From an uncultured Pseudomonadota bacterium (GTDB taxonomy: Bacteria; Myxococcota_A; UBA796; GCA-2862545), in contig CALATR010000217.1 of assembly GCA_937891875.1 (NCBI GenBank), forward strand, positions 1-39,530: a stretch of 39,530 bases of DNA, read 5' to 3'. Numbering within the stretch: position 1 is the first letter of the stretch; the number at the start of each line of letters is the position of its first letter. Below the pieces are notes generated by a model. That model saw only the letters and a list, made by a program, of their open reading frames with translations, was not told the DNA's origin and searched no databases. Of the stretch, positions 113 through 24,605 are shown in pieces. The position numbers were made by a program, and so were the translations under genes.

Positions 113-2050
<1,938 letters not shown>

Positions 2051-2179
2051 GGAGGACCTCGGGGTGGGGTTGGCTTGCGCCGAAGACCCTCCCACGACAA
2101 TTCCTTACAACTCAATGACGGGCATACCTGACGTGCGAGCGAAATTTTTCGGATACCTGGACAGTACGTTGACAACGCA

Positions 2180-3487
2180 TCACGGCGTTCTGCGAGCGAG
2201 AACGTCGAGAACCGCGGCCCGGGTCTTCGGTGGGAGCTCGTCGGCGCGAAGCTCGCCTCGGTGGACCATTCCGGCGAAGGAGCTCACCAGATCGGGGTCG
2301 TCGTGGATGTGTTCGTCGAGCTCGGCAGCGGTCCCGGGGTGGGAGAAGTACGTGCGCCACTCCTCGGAAGAGGGACGGTCCGGGTCGTCTTCGGGCGGTT
2401 CGTCCGCTGGTTCGCGCTCTTCGGCAGCCGCGCGGAAGTCGTCGACGAAGCTCGCCGAGGGGTCCCACTCGCCGGCAGCCAGATCGGAGATCACGCCGTC
2501 CAGGAAGTCGGTCAGCTGCTCGGAGCCCTCGAAGGCGGCGGCGTCCGCGATGACGCCCAGCTCCACGAAGTCGGGCGGCTGATAGAGCGGCGGCTCCTCC
2601 GGTGCGCGCAGGGTCAGGTCGACAGTCTGGCCGGGAGCCGCGCTCACCCGGACCGGCCTGGCGCGGGCAACGATGAGGGGGAACAGGGCGCTACGCCGCT
2701 CGAGCTGGACGGCGCAGGTGGACGCCGCGATGGTGAACGCGCTCGGTGCATCGCGCACGTGGTGCATGACGCCGCAGCCGCGCAAGATGACGACCGCCTC
2801 GGAGAGCTCCAGATCCTCGGGCAAGGGGCTTCCGTCGTGGTCGACCACCGTGATCCGCAGCGTGGCGGTCTCGCTCTCCCACACCCCGTCGCAGCTGGTC
2901 GTGGAGCCAGGCTCGGCGCCGGACCAGCGGACCTGCAGCCAGCGCCCGTCGATGTGTCCCGGTGGGATGTCGTTGCCGGTCTGCTGCAGGAACACGCGGC
3001 TCGATCCTGACGGTTCGGACACGACCACGGTGAGCCGTCCCTTCAGCACGCCGCTGCTCCGGGAGATCAGGTCGACCGTGCCCTCGTCGAGGCCGGCGTC
3101 CCGGTCGACGGTGGCCGACGACGCGATGAGCTCGCCGTCTGGGCCCTCCCAGTACGGGCTGGCATTATCCGGCGTGAACGCGGAGATGTCGCAGGTGACC
3201 ACCGCGCCTCCCGTCCAGTCCGCACGATCGGCGAGGCGGTCGTAGTGGGGACGGATCCCATCGGGGACCGCGGTCAGGTCGGGGACGGGCTGGGGGGAGC
3301 GGGCTGGGGCTCTGGCGCCGGTGGAGAGCTTCTGCACGTCGGTGGCGCCGTAGTCGTGCATCGGTCCGACCTGCAGCGGGGTGGTCGCGGGCAGGGAGAG
3401 GGGCAGGGCGACGAAGCCGAGCAGGATGGCGAGCAACGAGCCGACCACGGCGAAGAGGATCCAGCGGCGGTCCCTGCGCGCGTTCAT
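2180..3487 (-). CDS. Single-pass membrane-anchored protein of unknown function (tandem paralog A)
   Basis: 435-aa ORF. Basic N-terminus MNARRDRRW followed by TM helix ILFAVVGSLLAILLGFVALPL. Collinear with 3622..4911 (LQVRWSGAEPG..CDGVW, PPLYQPPD, C-terminal ELPPKTRAAV). No known family recognised. Confidence 0.75.
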   Translation of the reverse strand: MNARRDRRWILFAVVGSLLAILLGFVALPLSLPATTPLQVGPMHDYGATDVQKLSTGARAPARSPQPVPDLTAVPDGIRPHYDRLADRADWTGGAVVTCDISAFTPDNASPYWEGPDGELIASSATVDRDAGLDEGTVDLISRSSGVLKGRLTVVVSEPSGSSRVFLQQTGNDIPPGHIDGRWLQVRWSGAEPGSTTSCDGVWESETATLRITVVDHDGSPLPEDLELSEAVVILRGCGVMHHVRDAPSAFTIAASTCAVQLERRSALFPLIVARARPVRVSAAPGQTVDLTLRAPEEPPLYQPPDFVELGVIADAAAFEGSEQLTDFLDGVISDLAAGEWDPSASFVDDFRAAAEEREPADEPPEDDPDRPSSEEWRTYFSHPGTAAELDEHIHDDPDLVSSFAGMVHRGELRADELPPKTRAAVLDVLARRTP

Positions 3488-3573
3488 GGGTCCATCTCGT
3501 CGAGGTGCGCGGTGACCGCGGCGCGGGTCTGGGGCGGCAGGTCGTCCAGGCGACGGTTCGTCCTTCGGTCCAT
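3484..3573 (-). pseudogene. 29-codon ORF MDRRTNRRLDDLPPQTRAAVTAHLDEMDP; looks like a collapsed third copy of the flanking paralogs (N-terminal 8 aa joined to the C-terminal motif)
   Basis: Hand translation of the minus strand 3573->3484. The N-terminus resembles MDRRSRLRW of paralog B, and the remainder carries the C-terminal (D/E)LPPxTRAAV motif of both paralogs. Its TGA overlaps the ATG of paralog A (ATGA at 3484..3487). Confidence 0.4.
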
Positions 3574-3621
3574 GAGTCCCCCCGAGTTGCCACGTTGAAG
3601 CTGGCTAACTGGAGCCCGTGC

Positions 3622-4911
3622 TCAGCGCCCGCGCTCCTGCAGCTTCGCCTCCACCGCGGCCCGGGTCTCGGGCGGCAGGTCCTCGAGCTGCGTCTCCCCG
3701 GCCTCCACGGACGTCGCGAAGAAGTCGATCACCTGCTCGTTCTCGACGATCTGCGAGTCCACCTGGGCGGCGACCTCCGGATCGGAGAGATCCCCGCCGC
3801 TGAAGGTCTCCTCCGGGGGCAGCGGTTCCTGCTGGGCCTTCGCCAGCTCCTCGAACATCGCGGGGTCCCAGTCGCCGTTCAGGATGCTCTGCAGCAGCTC
3901 CTCGAAGGCGTCGGCCATGGCGTCGGAGCCGAAGTACGCGGCGACGTCGGCGGCCGTGGAGAGCTCGATGAGGTCGGGGGGCTGGTAGAGCGGGGGCTCG
4001 GGCGGGGCGCGCAGGGTGACGTCGACGTTGCCGCCCGCCGGGACGTCGATGATGACGGCTTCCCCGCGGTTGGCGATGAGGGGGAAGGTGGAGTTGCGGC
4101 GCTCGACCTGCAGGGCGCAGCGTCCGGCGGGAACGGGGAGCTCCGCCTCGTGGGCGGCCGGGCTCATGAGCCCGCACCCGCGGACCACGATCAGGGGGGG
4201 CTGCGTGCCGTCCTCGGAGTCGGGTGGAGAAAACTCCTGCCCCCGCTCGTCGAGCACGGTCAAGGTCAGGGTGCCGGTGTCGCGCTTCCACACGCCGTCG
4301 CAGCCCACCGTGGTGCCGGGCTCTGCGCCGGACCAGCGCACCTGCAGCCAGTCGCCTTCCAACGACCCGGAGGGCGAGGTCGCCATGTCCGGAGCCAACA
4401 CCCGGGAGGAGCCTGACGTCTCGCGCACGGTGAACGTGATCCGCCCGTCGACGACCGGGGTGTAGAACCGCGACACCACGTCGACCGAGCCCTCGAGGTG
4501 CACGCCCTCGTCCATGTCGAGGAAGGCCATCTGGGGCATCACGAAGTCGTCGAAGTCGGGGTCCCCTGGGGCGGGATCCGGCTCCCTCGGGGACATCAGC
4601 GCGCCGATGTCGCAGGTGACGACCGCCCCGTCGATCCAGTCCGCCCGGTCGTGGGCGCGATCCCAGTGCTCGCCGTATTCCACGGGGAGATCCTCGCGCG
4701 TCGGCACGGGCTGCACCGCCGGCGCCGGGATCTCCGGCCGGTCGGGGTTGAAGGTGTGCACGTCGGTGGCGCTGTAGTCGTCCATGACGACCGCGCGGAC
4801 CGGCACCGGCGCGGGCAGGGCCATGGGCAGGGCCACGAAGCCGAGCAGGATCGCCAGGACGGCACCGACCACGGCGAAGAGCACCCAGCGAAGCCGACTC
4901 CGGCGATCCAT
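3622..4911 (-). CDS. Single-pass membrane-anchored protein of unknown function (tandem paralog B)
   Basis: Track ORF 3622..5166 over-extends into xthA on the other strand. ATG 4911 is preceded directly by GGAGGAAGG and yields MDRRSRLRWVLFAVVGAVLAILLGFVALPM, which aligns residue for residue with the N-terminus of paralog A. ATG 4929 is the alternative start. Confidence 0.75.
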   Translation of the reverse strand: MDRRSRLRWVLFAVVGAVLAILLGFVALPMALPAPVPVRAVVMDDYSATDVHTFNPDRPEIPAPAVQPVPTREDLPVEYGEHWDRAHDRADWIDGAVVTCDIGALMSPREPDPAPGDPDFDDFVMPQMAFLDMDEGVHLEGSVDVVSRFYTPVVDGRITFTVRETSGSSRVLAPDMATSPSGSLEGDWLQVRWSGAEPGTTVGCDGVWKRDTGTLTLTVLDERGQEFSPPDSEDGTQPPLIVVRGCGLMSPAAHEAELPVPAGRCALQVERRNSTFPLIANRGEAVIIDVPAGGNVDVTLRAPPEPPLYQPPDLIELSTAADVAAYFGSDAMADAFEELLQSILNGDWDPAMFEELAKAQQEPLPPEETFSGGDLSDPEVAAQVDSQIVENEQVIDFFATSVEAGETQLEDLPPETRAAVEAKLQERGR

Positions 4912-7327: not shown

Positions 7328-8010
7328 TGCGCCTGCTGCCACTGCTGATCGTCGCGGTCCTGCCCTCCGCCGCCCTCGCCGCGGACGAGCCGGTGCTCAG
7401 CCCCGATCGCCCGGGCGTCGGCGAGAGCCCCGGGACCCCCGGGGTCGGTGCCTTCAACGTCGAGAGCGCCGCGACCCTGACCTTCGTCGAGGGCGACGTG
7501 CACCCGGGCCTCCAGGGAACCCGGATCCGGGTCGGAATCGCCGAGAACGTCGAGCTGCGCGCCGTCGTGCCCGACGTGGTGTTCCAGCGTAGCGAGGTCG
7601 TGCTCGGTCCCATCGGTGCGGGAGCCAAGATCGCCGCCCGAGCCAGCGACCGCTTCTCCCTGTCCGTCGTGCCGGAGCTGCTGATCACCTTCGATGGCGA
7701 GGCTGGCTGGCGGGTCTCCGCGAACGGTGGGTTCGAGGAGGGCAAGGTCACCCTGTGGCTGAACGCGACCACGACCGTGTTCGACAGTGACCTGCACGTC
7801 TTTGGCGGCGGTGGCGCCTCGGTGGCCATCGACAGCGGCGGCATCTACATCAACGCCGGTCGGGAGGTGGTCTACCGAGACACCCTGGTCGGTGGCGGCG
7901 GCTGGTGGAGGCTGCGGTCGAACCTGCAGGTCGACGCGGGGATCGACCTGTGGCTGGACGGCCCGGACATCATCGCGGTGCCCCAGATCGGCTGCTCGAT
8001 CGCGTTCTGA
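7327..8010 (+). CDS. Small outer-membrane beta-barrel protein (resembles the MetA-pathway/phenol-degradation-like OMP family)
   Basis: Signal peptide MRLLPLLIVAVLPSAALAADE, then SPDRPGVGESPGTPGVGAFNVES (family-typical DRPG start). Alternating beta pattern, C-terminal ...GCSIAF ending in Phe. The ATG overlaps the TetR stop (TGATG). Confidence 0.5.
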   Translation: MRLLPLLIVAVLPSAALAADEPVLSPDRPGVGESPGTPGVGAFNVESAATLTFVEGDVHPGLQGTRIRVGIAENVELRAVVPDVVFQRSEVVLGPIGAGAKIAARASDRFSLSVVPELLITFDGEAGWRVSANGGFEEGKVTLWLNATTTVFDSDLHVFGGGGASVAIDSGGIYINAGREVVYRDTLVGGGGWWRLRSNLQVDAGIDLWLDGPDIIAVPQIGCSIAF

Positions 8011-8147
8011 CCGGCGGGACCTGAACTTCGGCCGTTCACCCGCGTTCCACGAAGTCACGGCGAGTTGACGAGCGGGCGCGCAGAGCCGTCTACGCTTGCG
8101 ACTCGGGCGGCAGAGTCCCCCCAAAGGCCGCCCCTGGGGAGGTCCTC

Positions 8148-10607
8148 GTGCGCTTGCTGTCCCTCATCGCGCTCTCCATGGCCGTGCAGGCCTGTGGAGG
8201 CGGCGAGTGTCTGGACGTGCCCACCGCGCCCGCCCACGTGGTGTTCGAAGACGCCACGATCGGGGAGCGCGCGCTGCAGGTGCTGCGCCTCGAGAACACC
8301 TGCGAGGCCGAGCTGGCGGTGTCCTCGTCCGAGCTCATCGGCGACGCCCGCTTCGAGCTCAACGACGACGCCGCCGCCATCCCCGGCCTGGGTGACGCGC
8401 CCTTCGCGGTGGCGTTCACGGCCGATGGCTACGGTACTCACGTCGCCGAGCTCGCCGTCACGACTGCGAACGGCACCACCACCGTCGTGGTGTCCGGCAC
8501 CGCCGATCCCGACCAGGACGGGGACGGCGTCGATGCCTACCTGGCCGGCGGCACCGACTGCGACGACACCGATCCGGACGTGGTCGAGGCCCGCGAGGAG
8601 GAGGTCAACGGCCGGGACGACGACTGCGACGGACTCGTGGACGAGGACTTCATCCGCGCCGGCGACATCGTCATCACCGAGGTCATGATCTCGCCGGTCG
8701 CAGCCACCGGTCAGGCCGGCCAGTGGGTCGAGGTGCGCAATGCCGGCAGCCGCCGGGTGGATCTGTCGGGCTGGACCCTCTCCGGACCCAGCGGCCGCTA
8801 CACGGTCGAGCCGGGGCTGCAGCTGTCGGGCGGCGAGTACGCCGTGCTCGGCTTCGAGGCCGACACCAGCCTCAACGGCGGCGTCGAGCTGGACGGGCTG
8901 CTCACCGGTGGCGAGACCGCGCTGCCCACCCAGGGCTGGTTCTTGAGCCTCGCGGTCGAGGGGCGCGCGATCAACGTGCTGTCCGACAAGAAGTGGCCCC
9001 AGGAGAACGGCCACTCGGTGAACCTCGACGCCGAGGTGCTGGACCCCGCCGTCGCGACCCGCGCCGAGAGCTGGTGCGTGGCCAGCACCGTGATGCCCAA
9101 CGGCGACTTCGGCACGCCGGGGGCCCGGAACGACCTGTGCCCGCAGTTCGACCACGACGGCGACGGGCTGTCGGTGCTCGACGGCGACTGTGACGACACC
9201 GACGCGGACGTGAACCCCATCGCCTTCGACGTGTGGGACGGGGTCGACAACAACTGCGACGAGGTCGTGGACCTGGTGGTCGGCGCGGGCGCGGCCCAGG
9301 GGATCATCCAGGGCAGCGGCATCCGGCTGGGCAGTCACGTCCGGGGCACGTCGGACAGCCTGCTCATCGTCGGCACCGCGAACAACTCGACGGCGCTGTA
9401 CGTCGTGCCCTTCGGCAACGCGATCGGCGACGGCATCCAGCCGATCGGTGACGTGCTCTCCGGCTGGTACGAGGAGTCGGGCACCGCGAGGGTGGGGGCC
9501 ATCACCTCCTCCGCACCGCTGCACGACGTCGATGGGGACGGCGACGACGACGTGGTCGTGCTCGGTCGGCCGGCGAACTTCTACCAGGAGACCACCTCCT
9601 ACGACTACCTGTGGGTCTACGACGGGCTCCCCGCGGACACGATGACCGCCAGCGGCAACGACGACGCCTTCCTGGTCGTGCGCGACCCGCTGGACGGCAA
9701 CGGCTCCGACGGGGTCGAGGCCCTGCTGGACCTGGATCTGGACGGCGATGGCACCGCGGACAGCGTGTTCGGCCACGGCTCGTACAAGGGCACCGTGGAG
9801 GGCTTCGATCGCGTGAACAAGGGCCGGGTGTGGGTGCTGGACCTGGCGGGTGCGAGCGGGCGCGTCGACCCCGGCGACCTGATGGTGGCGTCGTGGACCG
9901 GGGAGAACGACTTCACCGGCCTCGGCGACTCGCTGTCCGGCGGTGACGTCGATGATGATGGCTACGACGACATCATCGTCATGGACGTCGACCCGTTTGC
10001 CGCGATGGAGACCGACCGTCGGGTGCAGATCCTGTCCGGCAGCGCGGACTACGCGGCGGACACCACGGTGGAGGCGGCGAGCTCGCTGATGATCACCGGG
10101 CTCGCCCAGCGCAACAGCCAGAACGACCAGGACGTGCAGGCCCCCCTGCTCGCCGATCTCGACGCCGACGGCGACATGGATCTCGCGATCCCTGATCCCT
10201 ACGCCTCCAGCGTGCGGATCTTCCACGACGCGAAGAACCTCTCGGGCGAGGTCGCCGCGGCGGACGCGGATCTCGTGCTCACCGGCACCGGCGGGTTCGG
10301 CACCCACCTCGTGCTCGGCGATCCGGCGGGGGACGGCACCCTGCACCTGCTGGTCGGCGCACCCACCAACGACTTCCGCGACTCGAGCGGGCGGGCCTGG
10401 CTCTTCCCCCAGAGCGCGCTGGGCGGCACCGGAACGGTCGACACGACTGCGGCCACTGCGGCCTTCGGCGACGACAGCAGCGCCTCCTTCGGCGCCTACA
10501 TGGCGCTGATCGACGTGACCGGCGACGGGCGTGACGACGTGGTCGCGCCGGACATCGGCCTGTTCGGCTTCAGCGGCGGCGTCTACCTCTTCGTCGCGCC
10601 GGAGTAG
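8148..10607 (+). CDS. Large lipoprotein with MopE-like Cys-rich metal-binding motifs, a lamin-tail domain (LTD) and FG-GAP/VCBS-type repeats
   Basis: Lipobox LSMAVQAC. DCDDTDPDV...NGRDDDCDGLVDED and DCDDTDADVNP...DNNCDEVVD. LTD-like ITEVMISPVAATGQAGQWVEVRNAGSRRVDLSGWTL. Repeated DVDGDGDDDVVV / DLDADGDMDLA / DVTGDGRDDVVAPD. GGGGAGG precedes the GTG start. Confidence 0.8.
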   Translation: MRLLSLIALSMAVQACGGGECLDVPTAPAHVVFEDATIGERALQVLRLENTCEAELAVSSSELIGDARFELNDDAAAIPGLGDAPFAVAFTADGYGTHVAELAVTTANGTTTVVVSGTADPDQDGDGVDAYLAGGTDCDDTDPDVVEAREEEVNGRDDDCDGLVDEDFIRAGDIVITEVMISPVAATGQAGQWVEVRNAGSRRVDLSGWTLSGPSGRYTVEPGLQLSGGEYAVLGFEADTSLNGGVELDGLLTGGETALPTQGWFLSLAVEGRAINVLSDKKWPQENGHSVNLDAEVLDPAVATRAESWCVASTVMPNGDFGTPGARNDLCPQFDHDGDGLSVLDGDCDDTDADVNPIAFDVWDGVDNNCDEVVDLVVGAGAAQGIIQGSGIRLGSHVRGTSDSLLIVGTANNSTALYVVPFGNAIGDGIQPIGDVLSGWYEESGTARVGAITSSAPLHDVDGDGDDDVVVLGRPANFYQETTSYDYLWVYDGLPADTMTASGNDDAFLVVRDPLDGNGSDGVEALLDLDLDGDGTADSVFGHGSYKGTVEGFDRVNKGRVWVLDLAGASGRVDPGDLMVASWTGENDFTGLGDSLSGGDVDDDGYDDIIVMDVDPFAAMETDRRVQILSGSADYAADTTVEAASSLMITGLAQRNSQNDQDVQAPLLADLDADGDMDLAIPDPYASSVRIFHDAKNLSGEVAAADADLVLTGTGGFGTHLVLGDPAGDGTLHLLVGAPTNDFRDSSGRAWLFPQSALGGTGTVDTTAATAAFGDDSSASFGAYMALIDVTGDGRDDVVAPDIGLFGFSGGVYLFVAPE

Positions 10608-20692: not shown

Positions 20693-21310
20693 ATGATCGA
20701 CCTGCAGGACATCCGGGCGGCCGTGGCCCGCGCACCGAGTCGCGTGGAGCTGCCCGAGGACGGACGCCGGGCGGCGGTCGCAGCGGTCGTGACGCCAGAC
20801 CTGGAGCTGCTGTTCATGTCCCGCGCGGTGTTCGAGGGGGATCCCTGGAGCGGCCAGGTGAGCTTCCCCGGTGGGCGGGTGGAGCCGGACGAGGGCGTGC
20901 TGGACGCCGCCATCCGCGAGACCCTGGAGGAGCTGGGCCTGCCGCTCGATCGCGACTGCCTGCTGGGGGAGCTGGACGAGCTGCAGACGCGGGGCAACCA
21001 GCCCACGCTCGTCATCCGGCCCTACGTCTTCGCGCCCGCCCGGATCCCGCCCCTGCGCCCGAACGAGGAGGTGGCGCGGGTGCATCGGCTGGGCCTGGAC
21101 GCGCTGCTGGCCGGCGCCGGGCGCGGAACGATGCGTCATCCCTGGCGCGAGCACGAGCTGGTGCTGCCGAAGGTGGACTTCGACGGGGTGCGCCTGTGGG
21201 GCCTGACCCTGCACATGGTCGACGACCTGCTCCACCGCCTGGACGGGCGGGGGCGGGGGCTCGCGCGGAGCGGGACGATGGATGCGCGGACACCCTGGGA
21301 AGGGGCGTAG
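20693..21310 (+). CDS. NUDIX hydrolase (CoA pyrophosphatase-like)
   Basis: Internal ATG of track ORF 20300..21310 with GGAGG upstream. NUDIX box GGRVEPDEGVLDAAIRETLEELGL. Confidence 0.85.
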   Translation: MIDLQDIRAAVARAPSRVELPEDGRRAAVAAVVTPDLELLFMSRAVFEGDPWSGQVSFPGGRVEPDEGVLDAAIRETLEELGLPLDRDCLLGELDELQTRGNQPTLVIRPYVFAPARIPPLRPNEEVARVHRLGLDALLAGAGRGTMRHPWREHELVLPKVDFDGVRLWGLTLHMVDDLLHRLDGRGRGLARSGTMDARTPWEGA

Positions 21311-21325
21311 GGAGCCGTCTCTCGG

Positions 21326-21718
21326 CTAGACGGACTCGTGGGGCGGCTCGGTCCGCTCTTCCCGCAGCATCTCCAGCAGGGCCTGCAGGCGGAACGGCTT
21401 CCACAGCACGGTGGCGCCGAGTCGCTCGGCCTCGCGCTCGACCGCGCCGGTGGCCCGACCGGTCACGAGGACCAGGCGCGCGCCGGTGGCCTGAGCCTCG
21501 GCCAGGACGTGCAGCCCCTGGCGATCCCCGAGGCTCTGGTCCGCCAGCACGAGGGTCAGGCGCTCCCCGTTGGCCTCGATCTCCTGCAGCTCTTCTCGGG
21601 CCTGGAAGCCCGACGACGCCGTCCGCACGTGATGGTCGGGCATGGCCATGCGGATGGCCTCCTCCATGATCTGGAGCAGGTCCGGGACGTCATCAACAAT
21701 CAGCACCACGGGGCGCAT
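21326..21718 (-). CDS. Stand-alone CheY-like response-regulator receiver domain
   Basis: MRPVVLIVDDVPD..., phospho-acceptor LVLADQSL, LVLVTG, WKPF. Start set at ATG 21718 (GGAGG upstream) instead of 21763. Confidence 0.85.
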   Translation of the reverse strand: MRPVVLIVDDVPDLLQIMEEAIRMAMPDHHVRTASSGFQAREELQEIEANGERLTLVLADQSLGDRQGLHVLAEAQATGARLVLVTGRATGAVEREAERLGATVLWKPFRLQALLEMLREERTEPPHESV

Positions 21719-21799
21719 GGAACCTCCGTGCGGATCTGTAGCAGGTCGCAGTCTGCTATCCAATGCCGCGGCACGAAAGCGAAATGATGAGGGCAGGTT

Positions 21800-22243
21800 T
21801 CAGGAGTTCTTACGAAACCGGACCTCGCGCACACGGCCCGCAACCATGTCGACCAGCAGCACCCCATCGACGTCGAAGGCGTGGGTGTACTCCAGCAGCT
21901 GCCGTCGGGTCGCGGGTGCGGTCGGCCGCGCTCCGAGCTCTCCCGACTTGACCTCGGCGACGTAGCGGCGGCGCTTGCGGCGCACGATGAGGTCCGCGCG
22001 GCAGGTCACGTCCACCGGGGCGTCATCGACGAAGAGCCGCCAGGAACCGGTCACCTGCCGCTCGAGGATGCGGTAGCCGTGGCGCTCCAGCAGCCGCTCG
22101 GCCTGCGCCTCCGCGTGCTGACCCTGCCGCACCCGACCGCGCGCCACCCACGACCGCCCGATCCGCGTGAGCGTCACGGTGACGAGCACGGCGAGCAGTG
22201 CTGCGGCGGTGGCGGCGAGCGTGAGGAGGAGGGCGTCGGACAT
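21800..22243 (-). CDS. Small TM-anchored protein with a PD-(D/E)xK (YraN/endonuclease-like) motif arrangement
   Basis: Internal ATG 22243 of track ORF 21800..22456. TM helix LLLTLAATAAALLAVLVTVTL. AERLLERHGYRILERQ ... CRADLIV ... YVAEVKSG gives a D...E-x-K pattern. Confidence 0.45.
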   Translation of the reverse strand: MSDALLLTLAATAAALLAVLVTVTLTRIGRSWVARGRVRQGQHAEAQAERLLERHGYRILERQVTGSWRLFVDDAPVDVTCRADLIVRRKRRRYVAEVKSGELGARPTAPATRRQLLEYTHAFDVDGVLLVDMVAGRVREVRFRKNS

Positions 22244-22289
22244 CGGAGAGGAGTAGCGCTGGTGGCGGTCAGGATGTGTCCGGCGGGGC

Positions 22290-22310
22290 GAGTTGCGAGT
22301 TTCGAGTTGC
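22290..22310. repeat. Complementary heptanucleotide array x3 (gagttgc gagtttc gagttgc)
   Basis: Read directly; it is the reverse complement of the GAAACTC-type unit in the right arm. Confidence 0.85.
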
Positions 22311-22645
22311 GAGCCCGGGGGATGGTCCCAGCCTCCGCGGCCGTGGAGCGCGGCGGGTCCAGGCGGTCTGACGGGAGTGGAGGGGCGGTCTCTGGTCGCT
22401 GGTCTCTGGGGCCCTCTGCGATCAGGGGCCCAAGACGTGGTGTCAGGGGTGTCCACAGCCCCCGTTCCGCGGCTCCGTGCACGGATGCTGGGTGCTTGCG
22501 CGGATCACACGACTCTCCGCCCGACACGCCCCCGCTTGGATCAGGCCCCAGAGACCAGAGACCAGGGACCGCCCCGCCACTCCCCTGCCCGCAGCAACGC
22601 CATTCCCCGCCGGACCAACTCGACCCGCCGAAGTCCACGGCCGCG

Positions 22646-22708
22646 GAGACTCGAAACTCGAAACTCGAAACTCGAAACTCGAAACGCGAAACTCGAAACT
22701 CGAGACTC
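22646..22708. repeat. Tandem heptanucleotide array (GAAACTC-type) x9
   Basis: gagactc gaaactc x4 gaaacgc gaaactc x2 gagactc. It starts 15 nt downstream of the stop of CDS 22723..23295 on the minus strand. Confidence 0.95.
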
Positions 22709-22722
22709 GACCTTCTCCGCCG

Positions 22723-23295
22723 CTACTTCTCTTCCTCCCCCTCTCCCGGCGCCCGCCGGCCTGCTCGCCCGCTGCCAGAGATCGCCTCCGCCCAGCGGCT
22801 CGCCTTCTCCGCGAGGTCCGGGTTGTCCATGACCACCTTGCCCACCACGCGGGCCGAGCGGACTGCGGACGAGGCGACACGGCCGGCGCGCTGGAGGGTG
22901 GCGCGGGCCTGACGGGCGCGCTCCTCGACCTGCTCGCGGCCCGTGCGCCAGCGGTCCTGCAGGGCGTCCGCGTCGATCCACGTGTGCATCGGGCCCAGCC
23001 GATCTTCGAGGTCGTCCCAGGACAAGTCGGCGATCTGTCCGCTGGCCTGCAGCCAGGCTTCCTGCACCGCCGTGCCCAGCGCCATGCCCGCGAAGCCGGC
23101 TGCGCTGCGCAGCTCCTCGCGGACCGCGCGCCGGGCCTGGTCCTTCTCCAGGATGAAGGCGTCCATCTGGGTGGTGTCGGCGCTGACGTGGCCGCCGGTC
23201 AGCGAGCGCAGCGGCACGTCCCCGGGGGGGATGGTGACGTCGTCGGGCACCTGCCAGAAGTGTTCCCGGTCGCCGTCGAACCAGACCCGGCTCAC
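22723..23295 (-). CDS. Hypothetical protein, mostly helical and charged
   Basis: 190-aa ORF. Its GTG start overlaps the aminotransferase stop (GTGA at 23292..23295), implying co-translation. No family recognised. Confidence 0.55.
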   Translation of the reverse strand: MSRVWFDGDREHFWQVPDDVTIPPGDVPLRSLTGGHVSADTTQMDAFILEKDQARRAVREELRSAAGFAGMALGTAVQEAWLQASGQIADLSWDDLEDRLGPMHTWIDADALQDRWRTGREQVEERARQARATLQRAGRVASSAVRSARVVGKVVMDNPDLAEKASRWAEAISGSGRAGRRAPGEGEEEK

Positions 23296-24605
23296 GACGA
23301 GCCGCCCTGGCGGAGCAGCGCCTCGATCCGGTCGAGCGCCGCCTCGATGTCCGCGTCGGTGACGGCGCCGATCGAGAAGCGCATCCAGCCGGTGCCCTCA
23401 GGGTAGCCGAAGCTGGTGAACGGCACGACCGCGGTGTGCGCCTGGTGGAGCAGGACGCTGCGGATGTCCTCGTCGGTCTCGACGGTGCGGTCGCCGAAGG
23501 TGCGGCCGTGCAGCGGGAAGCGGGCGGTGACGTACAGCGCGCCCTCGGGCTGCACCGGCTCGACCGGCAGGCCGGCGGCGGACAGGGCAGACAGACGCTC
23601 GTAGATGCGGGTCTGGCGACCGGACACCTTGGTCCGGTAGGCCTCCATCCACGGCCGCATGATGTCGGGCTCGTCCAGGGTGGCGGCGGTCGCGAGCTGG
23701 GGGGCACGGCCGGCCCAGGCGCCCATGTGGCCGACCAGCGCCTTCATCGGAGCCATCAGCCAGGGCGGCGCCACCGCCCAGCCGACCCGCACGCCCGTCG
23801 CCGCCCAGCTCTTGCTGATCGCGTCGACCATGATGGTGTAGCGGGCCATCTCGGGCACACAGCCCACCGGCGTGACGTGCTCGACGTCGTCGAGGGTGAG
23901 CTGCCAGTAGACCATGTCGTACAGCAGGAAGAGCGGGCGCTGACCGGTCTCGTCCCGGCGGCGGTTCTCCGCGACGATCGCCTCGCAGATCTCGGTCATG
24001 GCCTCGCGGGAGATCGCCGTGCCCGACGGGTTCTGCGGGCTGTTGATGATCAGCAGCCGGGCTTCCTGCATGTGCGGCGCGAGGTCGTCTGCGGTGAGCA
24101 TGAAGCCGTGCTCGGGCTTCGCGACCAGCTCGATGCCGTGCGCGAAGTTGAGCGCGATGTAGTACGAGGTGTTCCAGCTGGGCACCTGGTACAGCACCTT
24201 GTCACCGGGGCTGACCAGGCAGGCGAAGGCCGCGTAGATCAAGGGACGAGCGCCACTTCCGACCTGCACCGTGCCCTCGGGGTAGGACAGGCCGAGGTCG
24301 CGGACGTAGTGGCGGCGGATGGCGGCGCGCAGCTGGGGCATGCCCACGGCAGGGGGGTAGTTGTTCTCGCCCGCGTCCTGCAGGCGCTGCTCGTGCTCGA
24401 GGAAGCGGCGCGGGACCGGGAACTCGGACGGGGCGAAGTCGCCGATGGTGAAGTTCGCGATGGGCTCGCCGGCCGCCTGGAGCCCGCGGACCTCATCAGC
24501 GATGGCGAGGATGTGCGACGGCTCCATCTGCATCGCCAGCTGGCTCCGCGTGCGCTCGGGCAGCGTGCCCGGGTCTGCGAACCAGGGATCCAGCGTCGTC
24601 GTCAT
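23292..24605 (-). CDS. Class I/II PLP-dependent aminotransferase
   Basis: Track ORF 23292..24809 trimmed to ATG 24605 (GGAGGG upstream). NYPPAVGMPQLR, VPSWNTSYY, INSPQNPSG, and the PLP-Lys region DAISKSWAATGVRVGW. Confidence 0.85.
   Translation of the reverse strand: MTTTLDPWFADPGTLPERTRSQLAMQMEPSHILAIADEVRGLQAAGEPIANFTIGDFAPSEFPVPRRFLEHEQRLQDAGENNYPPAVGMPQLRAAIRRHYVRDLGLSYPEGTVQVGSGARPLIYAAFACLVSPGDKVLYQVPSWNTSYYIALNFAHGIELVAKPEHGFMLTADDLAPHMQEARLLIINSPQNPSGTAISREAMTEICEAIVAENRRRDETGQRPLFLLYDMVYWQLTLDDVEHVTPVGCVPEMARYTIMVDAISKSWAATGVRVGWAVAPPWLMAPMKALVGHMGAWAGRAPQLATAATLDEPDIMRPWMEAYRTKVSGRQTRIYERLSALSAAGLPVEPVQPEGALYVTARFPLHGRTFGDRTVETDEDIRSVLLHQAHTAVVPFTSFGYPEGTGWMRFSIGAVTDADIEAALDRIEALLRQGGSS

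Follow-up and report, generated by a model that had tools for sequence, protein, structure and literature searches.

What occupies the 479-bp gap (22244–22722) between two minus-strand open reading frames (ORFs; 22723–23295 and 21800–22243) on contig CALATR010000217.1 of an uncultured Myxococcota_A bacterium (assembly GCA_937891875.1)? All coordinates are 1-based positions of the whole 39,530-nt stretch, which we call the window and which has a GC content of 71%. A first-pass annotation, made from the sequence alone, had described a ~435-bp foldback in this gap and had suggested that it might be a mobile remnant of the foldback or MITE type (MITEs being miniature transposable elements with inverted repeats), a large terminator or insulator, or a structured RNA. 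We concluded, with a probability of roughly 0.7, that this foldback belongs, as a single copy, to a lineage-specific family of modular, non-coding palindromes with many members; it would be a small non-autonomous foldback element, mobile now or in the past, that is MITE- or REPIN-like (REPINs being doublets of inverted REP sequences that fold into hairpins). The best-supported history is that the family multiplied in this organism after its split from the sampled relatives, and its architecture is apparently undescribed. Carrying this view are the copy number, the architecture shared among copies, the empty orthologous sites in relatives, the lack of co-evolution between the arms, and the placement of copies at gene 3′ ends.

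The foldback is real. A repeat finder reproduced every block pairing reported by the first-pass annotation and joined 22373–22429 with 22528–22584 (57 nt, 82% complementary), 22330–22375 with 22606–22651 (46 nt, 80%), and 22289–22313 with an array at 22650–22702 (25 nt, 88–92%). The 11-mer GTCCGGCGGGG at 22278–22288 paired with 22605–22615 at all 11 of its positions. When the left arm was aligned, with gaps, to the reverse-complemented right arm, 145 of 169 aligned positions (86%) matched and several indels were needed, which bears out the earlier description of the arms as mosaic. The minus-strand RNA, whose folding had been proposed as a check, was predicted to fold at −287.8 kcal/mol versus −224.2 ± 7.8 kcal/mol for dinucleotide shuffles (z = −8.1), and the plus strand at −282.3 kcal/mol (z = −8.9). 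On each strand 0 of 100 shuffles folded as well as the real sequence. The annotation was right to place heptamer arrays at both outer ends but missed an inner pair, as Tandem Repeats Finder (TRF) located four arrays in total. We concluded that 22278–22712 is a long imperfect palindrome, far beyond chance.

An independent 73-kb contig from the European Nucleotide Archive (L001) carried the whole element, identical to the window except in the outer array, where it had 10 copies versus 9 and differed at one base. The contigs L002 and L003 ended within the element, and each matched the window over the part that it covered; L002 was identical across its part apart from the outer array, inside which it began. 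Contigs that start inside the element are what is normally seen where a repeat has interrupted assembly. The foldback structure, found whole in one contig and in part in two others, is not an assembly artefact.

Copy number was estimated from the word-depth of Logan contigs, taken from public DNA runs that hold the locus and aligned on 21000–24000 (358–418 contigs aligned on the stretch). On both flanks depth was ~16. At a coarse scale it was ~3,000 over 22313–22413 and ~1,500 over 22515–22615, and at a fine scale 7,600–10,000 over 22380–22415 and 2,400–4,800 over 22560–22607. Raised depth (1,500–10,000) covered 22373–22428 and 22544–22610; at ≥80% likeness, depth dropped to zero in mid-centre, and it was ~18 beyond 22632. 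Many contigs left the window sequence exactly at 22373 and at 22600. Some joined 22429 to 22547, indicating copies with a shorter centre, and some jumped from 22600 or 22610 back to 22570 with 11–28 other letters between, indicating tandem units; others carried (GACTGGA)n in place of the window’s (GACCAGA)n. The ratios of repeat to flank depth were 300–630 and, with about three units per element, these imply a few hundred elements per genome. We concluded that the inner ~230 bp recurs at dispersed sites in high copy number, roughly a few hundred times per genome. Counting copies had been proposed as a check on whether the element was unique; contig depth and a pattern scan of metagenome contigs both found many, including at least 20 further complete copies.

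That scan, made with a 23-nt pattern, returned 14 loci (L014–L027) from a single assembly, all with 70–72% GC and assigned to the organism of the window; one of them, L025, had a flank depth of ~15–16 in the runs that hold the window locus. The complete elements in these loci have a common module order. Read 5′ to 3′ on either strand, it runs units, heptamers, centre, complementary heptamers, inverted units. From the outside inwards, an arm has between one and five units, each ~50 nt long (GGATCCGCTCGCGGGGAGTCGCGTTGCTGCGGGCAGGGGAGTGGCGGGGC; conserved core ~39 nt, period 45–53), and then two to five heptamers, which are GGTCNCT in type A and AGTCNCC in type B, and the 125–200-nt centre has a polarity of its own. 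Elements are 250–500 bp in size and contain no credible ORF. An nhmmer model of the unit gave 68 matches in the window and the 14 loci; left of a centre every match was on the plus strand, and right of it every match was on the minus strand. The numbers of units and heptamers were unequal between arms. In every element the modules of one arm recurred, inverted, in the other, yet the outermost ends were ragged. The unit is not itself palindromic, as its consensus folded as DNA no differently from shuffles (z = 0.16 for the G-rich strand and −1.16 for the C-rich strand). It starts with (A/C/G)GTCGCG (consensus ggaGTCgCG), with CGTC in a minority only.

The two types differ in array and centre. 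Type A has (GGTCTCT)n and a centre beginning GGGGCCC.C.GCGAGCGGGGG, whereas type B has (AGTCTCC)n and a ~142-nt centre running from CTTCGGCCGGCC to GGATCCGCTGCCGTAGGA. In type B copies the CTTCGG side of the centre has three heptamers and the GTAGGA side four, an asymmetry that follows the orientation of the centre in most copies. Two of them (L024 554–748 and 5443–5644) lie 4.9 kb apart in opposite orientation, with centres 94% identical and a common variant unit, GGGGATGCCTCTGCCC; the pair has the look of a recent duplication and could cause the intervening genes to invert. At L018 10971–10993, L019 230–266 and L025 8195–8267, either heptamers of types A and B were mixed or a type B element had a type A array lying outside it, which suggests nesting or recombination between the types. 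Other repeats also accompanied the modules. At L025 3800–3960 the right arm of a type B copy carried about five tandem ~37-nt repeats, GGCGAGACGACTGCCCGAACCACCGCGACGTT, instead of the usual units, and ended in two ACTCGAA heptamers. At L019 269–400 a separate ~33-nt repeat, CTGCCCGCAGCAACGGCC.C.ACG.CAGCGGCA, stood in three or four copies after a type A array and one unit, and ended ~20 nt upstream of a start codon.

The window copy is of type A, and an additional palindromic shell, which bears (CGAGTTT)n arrays, surrounds it. Its inner part, 22373–22610, aligned over its full length with copies in L019 and L021 at 74% column identity. This part opens with GGGAGTGGAGGGGC (22373–22386), the last 14 nt of a unit and a weak partial match to the unit model; exactly at 22373, 19–22 contigs per run parted from the window sequence. 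Next is the left inner type A array (22387–22409; GGTCTCT GGTCGCT GGTCTCT GG, TRF GGTCTCT × 3.3), where depth was ~10,000 compared to 16 in the flanks; an array of this kind follows a unit in 29 other arms. The 138-nt type A centre (22410–22547) has ends, GGGGCCCTCTGCGATCAGGGG and CCCCCGCTTGGATCAGGCCCC, that pair mutually, and it is 75% identical to the centre at L019 9649–9789 and, inverted, 68% identical to that of L021. The right inner array (22548–22570; CC AGAGACC AGAGACC AGGGACC, TRF CCAGAGA × 3.3) has G at 22566, where most other copies have A. A full-length right unit (22571–22610), the reverse complement of GCGGGGAATGGCGTTGCTGCGGGCAGGGGAGTGGCGGGGC, completes the inner part; the unit model matched it at 22573–22610 (E = 2.8e-8 in one search and 7.6e-11 in another).

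The shell around it (22285–22372 and 22611–22716) consists of spacers and outer arrays. To the left are a (GCGAGTT) × 3.7 array (22288–22313; TRF), 88–92% complementary to its counterpart, and a spacer (22314–22372) that contains CTCCGCGGCCGTGGAG and GGCGGGTC, pairs with 22606–22651 and has a depth of ~16–45. To the right are a spacer (22611–22648) that pairs with 22330–22372, and a (ACTCGAA) × 8.9 array (22649–22710; TRF score 110) whose length differs between metagenomes. This last array has nine copies in the window, one of them ACGCGAA, and ten uniform copies in L001 (2527–2596), and L002 starts within it (1–60); it is therefore a length-variable locus within the population. No other copy of the outer spacer was found in the loci examined, and by depth it was single-copy at ≥80% likeness. 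Inner and outer layers thus behave differently, the one high-copy and the other, in its spacer, single-copy. By eye the outer spacer had suggested a degenerate unit, a candidate reading that the unit model, which did not recognise it, failed to support. The (CGAGTTT/TTTCGAG)n array is the outermost module of two other copies, at L025 3496–3523 (two heptamers, at the far end) and L026 13436, and all three heptamers have a common core GT(C/T)TC with a different dinucleotide between core repeats. The outer shell may be either an optional module of the family or partly grown in place.

Orthologous loci in relatives lacked the block. The gene upstream of the gap (22723–23295, minus strand; from the ORF list, with a third-position GC content of 0.87) encodes a 190-aa protein that matched no Pfam or NCBIfam family. 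It has ten homologues, the closest named one (54% identity) being in a Myxococcota metagenome-assembled genome, on a contig with shared gene order; we therefore place the organism, a marine bacterium, probably in Myxococcota. The downstream gene (21800–22243, minus strand; ORF list) encodes a 147-aa protein that matched no known family and is encoded on 23 read contigs, with marine metagenome assemblies among the sources listed. In four loci (L028–L031) with homologues of the 190-aa protein at 82, 68, 55 and 54% identity, gene order was kept over at least 10 genes: two large unknown proteins, an aminotransferase, the 190-aa gene, the 147-aa gene, a response regulator, a NUDIX protein, an S26 peptidase and a protein that binds cyclic nucleotides (cNMP). 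The gap between the flanking genes was 39, 10, 41 and 86 bp in these loci versus 479 bp in the window, and neither a family unit nor a heptamer array was present anywhere in their 15–20 kb each.

Moreover, 22244–22284 (minus strand; CCGGACACATCCTGACC...GCTACTCCTCTCCG before the ATG) aligned with the entire spacer of the relatives L028, L030 and L031, where this spacer directly follows the stop codon. That is, because the relatives have short gaps and the window retains their spacer, the block at 22285–22716 (boundaries ± ~10 nt) is an insertion within ~6–12 nt past the stop codon of the 190-aa gene (22723–22725). It lies inside a probable operon; the flanking genes are probably co-transcribed. 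The search for empty sites that had been proposed at the outset therefore yielded four orthologous loci without the block and, together with the dispersal of the inner 230 bp, this supports the mobile remnant among the three suggestions. The retained spacer contains a motif, CGGACA..(T/C)CTGACC ... TACTC, at a fixed distance from the ATG in the window (22244–22284), L030 (8596–8636) and L031 (10550–10590) despite only 54–55% protein identity; its conservation suggests that it may be a regulatory or translation signal. In the closest relative the 39-bp empty site (L028 10579–10618) is a small palindrome, TAGTCGGCGG..GGTCGAC..CCGCCTCGGCTA.

Do the arms show signs of function? Complementarity between left and right units was 0.77 within elements and 0.81 between elements (Mann-Whitney p = 0.98); because pairing was no better within an element, there was no sign of selection for the hairpin. 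A sample of 87 type A and B heptamers was anchored on the unit end and was hence unbiased by the heptamer pattern. Position 5 varied 22 times whereas positions 2, 3, 4 and 6 varied 0, 3, 0 and 3 times (p = 4e-11), and the position-5 variants were unmatched in the opposite arm. We read this as a sign of sequence-specific recognition (GGTCNC) or of a mutational hot spot, and not of base pairing. Sixteen elements had both flanks resolved by codon-position GC: eight lay between convergent genes, eight between tandem genes and none between divergent genes (p = 0.01 for the lack of divergent cases and p = 0.027 for the excess of convergent ones). Every resolved copy adjoined at least one gene 3′ end, and several elements began 0–30 nt past a stop codon. 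Small metatranscriptomes contained arms of other copies, including a 684-nt contig that ran from a coding 3′ end into an arm and a 323-nt contig that spanned arm, centre and arm; depth on these contigs (6–8) was similar to that on gene contigs (2–5). These contigs fit co-transcription, on evidence that is thin and may include carry-over of DNA.

Evidence for a conserved RNA or a terminator was not obtained. The covariation check that had been proposed was run with RNAalifold on seven type B centres and was weak: 42 pairs were predicted, seven of them with a double change, and the covariation term was +0.8, so that a conserved RNA in this centre was rejected. Rfam 15 gave no match in the window at gathering score, and six family-bearing loci compared with Rfam at E ≤ 1 gave tRNA only. 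Both strands of 21700–23400 contained no terminator-like site (a GC-rich hairpin with a T/U run) and no promoter-like site.

These results weigh differently on the remaining explanations. A structured RNA specific to this locus, whether riboregulator, small RNA (sRNA) or attenuator, would control the 147-aa gene and the response-regulator gene, and the very stable predicted fold on the transcribed strand, between co-oriented genes, is what it would lead one to expect. However, hundreds of related copies lie elsewhere in both orientations, the element is absent from all four orthologous loci, the Rfam and covariation results were as given above, and no compensatory evolution of the arms was seen; we regard this reading as largely refuted and highly improbable. 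A large terminator or insulator is likewise not supported, given the lack of a terminator-like site and the absence of the element from orthologous loci. Recruitment of the family by the host, in the manner of repetitive extragenic palindromic (REP) sequences and bacterial interspersed mosaic elements (BIMEs), seems unlikely to us, yet it accounts for several observations. The copies would serve either as 3′-end hairpins (an mRNA stabiliser, a terminator independent of a U-tract, or an RNase III site) or as heptamer arrays for nucleoid organisation, and the window copy would uncouple expression of the 190-aa gene from that of the 147-aa gene, all of which is compatible with a mobile origin. 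The adjoining of gene 3′ ends by all resolved copies with none between divergent genes, the start of several copies 0–30 nt after a stop codon, the conservation of six of the seven heptamer positions, the fixation of the element in all metagenomes that hold the locus, and the arms in metatranscriptome contigs, with the 323-nt contig at a depth like that of gene contigs, are all in keeping with such a role. Yet close relatives do with a 10–86-bp spacer and without such repeats, no compensatory change keeps the arms paired (the position-5 variants give mismatches), no terminator-like site is present, and in the four tandem type B cases the orientation of the centre had no link with transcriptional direction. 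Avoidance of promoters is equally expected of a selfish element under purifying selection, and the RNA evidence is thin and may include carried-over DNA.

Origin of the shell in place is a minority possibility that we consider somewhat less doubtful than host recruitment. Under it the inner element (22373–22610) was inserted or pre-existing, and 22285–22372 and 22611–22716 grew locally by template switching or by inverted duplication and slippage. In its favour, the outer spacer is single-copy and not a unit, the spacer motifs CGGCGG, GGTCGA and CCCCGCC of the relatives recur in it, the empty site of L028 forms a small palindrome with GGTCGAC at its middle, and the outer arrays are strongly unequal (3.7 versus 8.9 copies) and vary between samples; in addition, the flanks 22247–22270 and 22709–22732 are 75% complementary. 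Against it, the (TTTCGAG)n array is outermost in the L025 and L026 copies, which argues for a family module, and the flanks of other copies are not palindromic, being no more complementary than mismatched pairs (p = 0.10), a comparison that also led us to reject insertion into pre-existing palindromes. Several findings weigh against the mobile family that we favour. There was no empty-site allele within the population, at this locus or at two L025 copies, so that the case for mobility comes from between-species absence and copy number and not from an observed event. As the first-pass annotation had stated for this gap, no target-site duplication or transposase was visible: no direct repeat stood at the ends of 13 copies, whose outer boundaries are ragged, or at the window junctions reconstructed from relatives, whose boundaries are not base-exact. 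An autonomous partner, transposase or REP-associated tyrosine transposase (RAYT) gene was not found in ~185 kb of this organism, no gene was flanked by inward-facing arms in 14 family-bearing loci, and a search with the centres for autonomous or coding copies matched only the family copies already identified. The copy number rests on metagenomes, in which related strains at similar abundance could inflate the figure. The shell, single-copy and unrecognised by the unit model, means that part of the palindrome could be of local origin, and the lack of copies in divergent regions, taken with the way that heptamer conservation differs by position, is compatible with a function selected by the host as well.

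The mobile, non-autonomous family nonetheless remains the explanation that we prefer, and its history might run as follows. Master elements would be copied by a putative trans-acting enzyme, with behaviour of the MITE, REPIN or foldback-transposon type; the heptamer asymmetry of type B (3 versus 4) and the 94%-identical centres 4.9 kb apart would fit such copying. The heptamers and units may be recognition sites of that enzyme or of a host protein. One copy would have landed past the stop codon of the 190-aa gene, inside the probable operon, after which its arms would decay independently and its arrays change length by slippage. The long RNA hairpin would then be a by-product, one that may still alter downstream expression through RNase III cleavage, 3′-end protection or partial termination. 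A bolder and rather speculative extension is that the family is a bacterial counterpart of eukaryotic foldback transposons, and that its arms array two modules, the GGTCNC heptamer and the ~50-nt unit, for recognition by a putative dedicated protein. The protein might be a mobilising enzyme of a new kind, or a host factor that uses several hundred 3′-end sites for 3′-end formation or chromosome organisation in this Myxococcota lineage.

We searched for the family outside this organism’s metagenome contigs. A 19-base core pattern run over GTDB representatives gave 10 single matches (Streptomyces, Microbacterium and others), which the unit model rejected and which we regard as chance. One such unrelated chance match, in Microbacterium sp. 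NPDC057407 (L012 992–1457), is a 165-bp tandem repeat (2.8 copies, 90% matches) with GGGTCTCGAT...ATCGAGACC palindromes. There was no match in PLSDB plasmids by blastn with the whole gap, none in a protein database searched with the translated unit array for spurious ORF calls over copies, and none to the unit pattern in viral contigs (IMG/VR). A wider GTCTC system in viruses was rejected: (GTCTCYR)n arrays occurred in 15 viral loci, but scrambled heptamer controls occurred in 13 and 24. Regardless of sequence, perfect arrays of at least four heptamers are fairly common in IMG/VR contigs (L032–L086), four patterns having given 15, 13, 24 and 3 loci, and several of these contigs have two or three arrays of one and the same heptamer. 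In run X5, from a project labelled with a named organism (‘organism A’) and not as a metagenome, the window bacterium was present at low depth, with a 180-nt contig (on 22392–22571) that matches the window element’s centre exactly; the bacterium may live in association with that organism. Elsewhere in the window, 429–466 is a perfect (CCG) × 12.7 trinucleotide array within an ORF (113–2104, minus strand) that has a weak match to M4 zinc metalloprotease models.

Small palindromic repeats (REP, REPIN, MITE) have received much study in a few Proteobacteria and Firmicutes, and our literature searches found none described for Myxococcota. Nor did we find described for bacteria the combination seen here, namely very high copy number with mirrored arms of tandem 50-nt units and of heptamer arrays that have a single degenerate position. 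The heptamer GGTCNCT and the unit core GGGGAGTGGCGGGGC are handles for finding the protein that reads the repeat. For annotation, this intergenic region is repeat DNA and not a gene-specific regulator; the family accounts for the breaks that this organism’s metagenome assemblies show at such sites, and the window copy is a natural case of a ~−288 kcal/mol hairpin inside a probable operon.

How does the family compare with known systems? Cyanobacterial heptamers of the STRR kind were reportedly described by Mazel et al. in 1990. Intergenic tandem heptamers also include the TAACTGA repeats of Beggiatoaceae and cyanobacteria (PMC4679880). Like our family, these two systems have tandem heptanucleotides, 2–6 per set and in ~100 or more sets per genome, which are almost all intergenic and favour one heptamer over near variants. 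They differ in being free-standing direct repeats, mostly just upstream of start codons, whereas our heptamers have other sequences and form complementary array pairs around a centre, fused to a 50-nt unit, at gene 3′ ends. The eukaryotic Foldback (FB) and Galileo transposons (PMC3573991, PMC4079207) resemble the family in their long inverted arms of variable tandem sub-repeats, unequal arms, non-repetitive centre and great structural variation among copies. The likeness is architectural only, as FB and Galileo are of kilobase scale and have autonomous transposase copies and target-site duplications, neither of which was found here.

Among bacterial elements, the family shows the MITE characteristics of small size (250–500 bp, against ~50–600 bp for MITEs), lack of coding capacity, high copy number, inverted arms and empty orthologous sites. 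Modular MITEs include BrickBuilt of Porphyromonas gingivalis (PMC4596501; 19 copies) and Chunjie of Geobacter (PMC10969869; ~38–95 copies). These two and BOX of Streptococcus pneumoniae (boxA-boxB(n)-boxC) are, like the family, non-coding, intergenic and multi-copy, with variable tandem subunits and strong predicted structure; BOX, RUP and SPRITE clusters further resemble it in having elements inserted into one another, and insertion into an operon is known for Chunjie, as it is probable for the window copy. However, modular MITEs have no sequence similarity to the family and carry the tandem subunit centrally, between short terminal inverted repeats, whereas our tandem modules are the mirrored arms. 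The conserved terminal inverted repeats and direct repeats of Chunjie were not found in the family, whose copy number is about ten times that of BrickBuilt or Chunjie.

REPs, REPINs and BIMEs of Pseudomonas and E. coli (PMC3116915, PMC2817692, PMC3733652) also occur in hundreds of lineage-specific extragenic copies, form a hairpin from two inverted repeats, and lie at gene 3′ ends and within operons; they lack target-site duplications, of which none was seen in the family. In contrast to a REP, which is an imperfect palindrome of 20–40 nt with a GTAG/CGTC tetranucleotide (PMC3733652), our ~50-nt unit is not palindromic, shows no clear GTAG tag and carries CGTC inconsistently. BIMEs alternate regularly spaced REPs (PMC2817692), whereas our units are direct within an arm and keep to one strand on each side of the centre. 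REPINs measure ~70–110 bp and are tied to RAYT genes, of which the sampled ~185 kb held none, whereas our copies measure 250–500 bp and include heptamer arrays and a polar centre of 125–200 nt. Because the unit is non-palindromic, the units are direct and there is no clear tag, the family falls outside the definition of REP sequences, although its behaviour is most like that of REPINs and MITEs.

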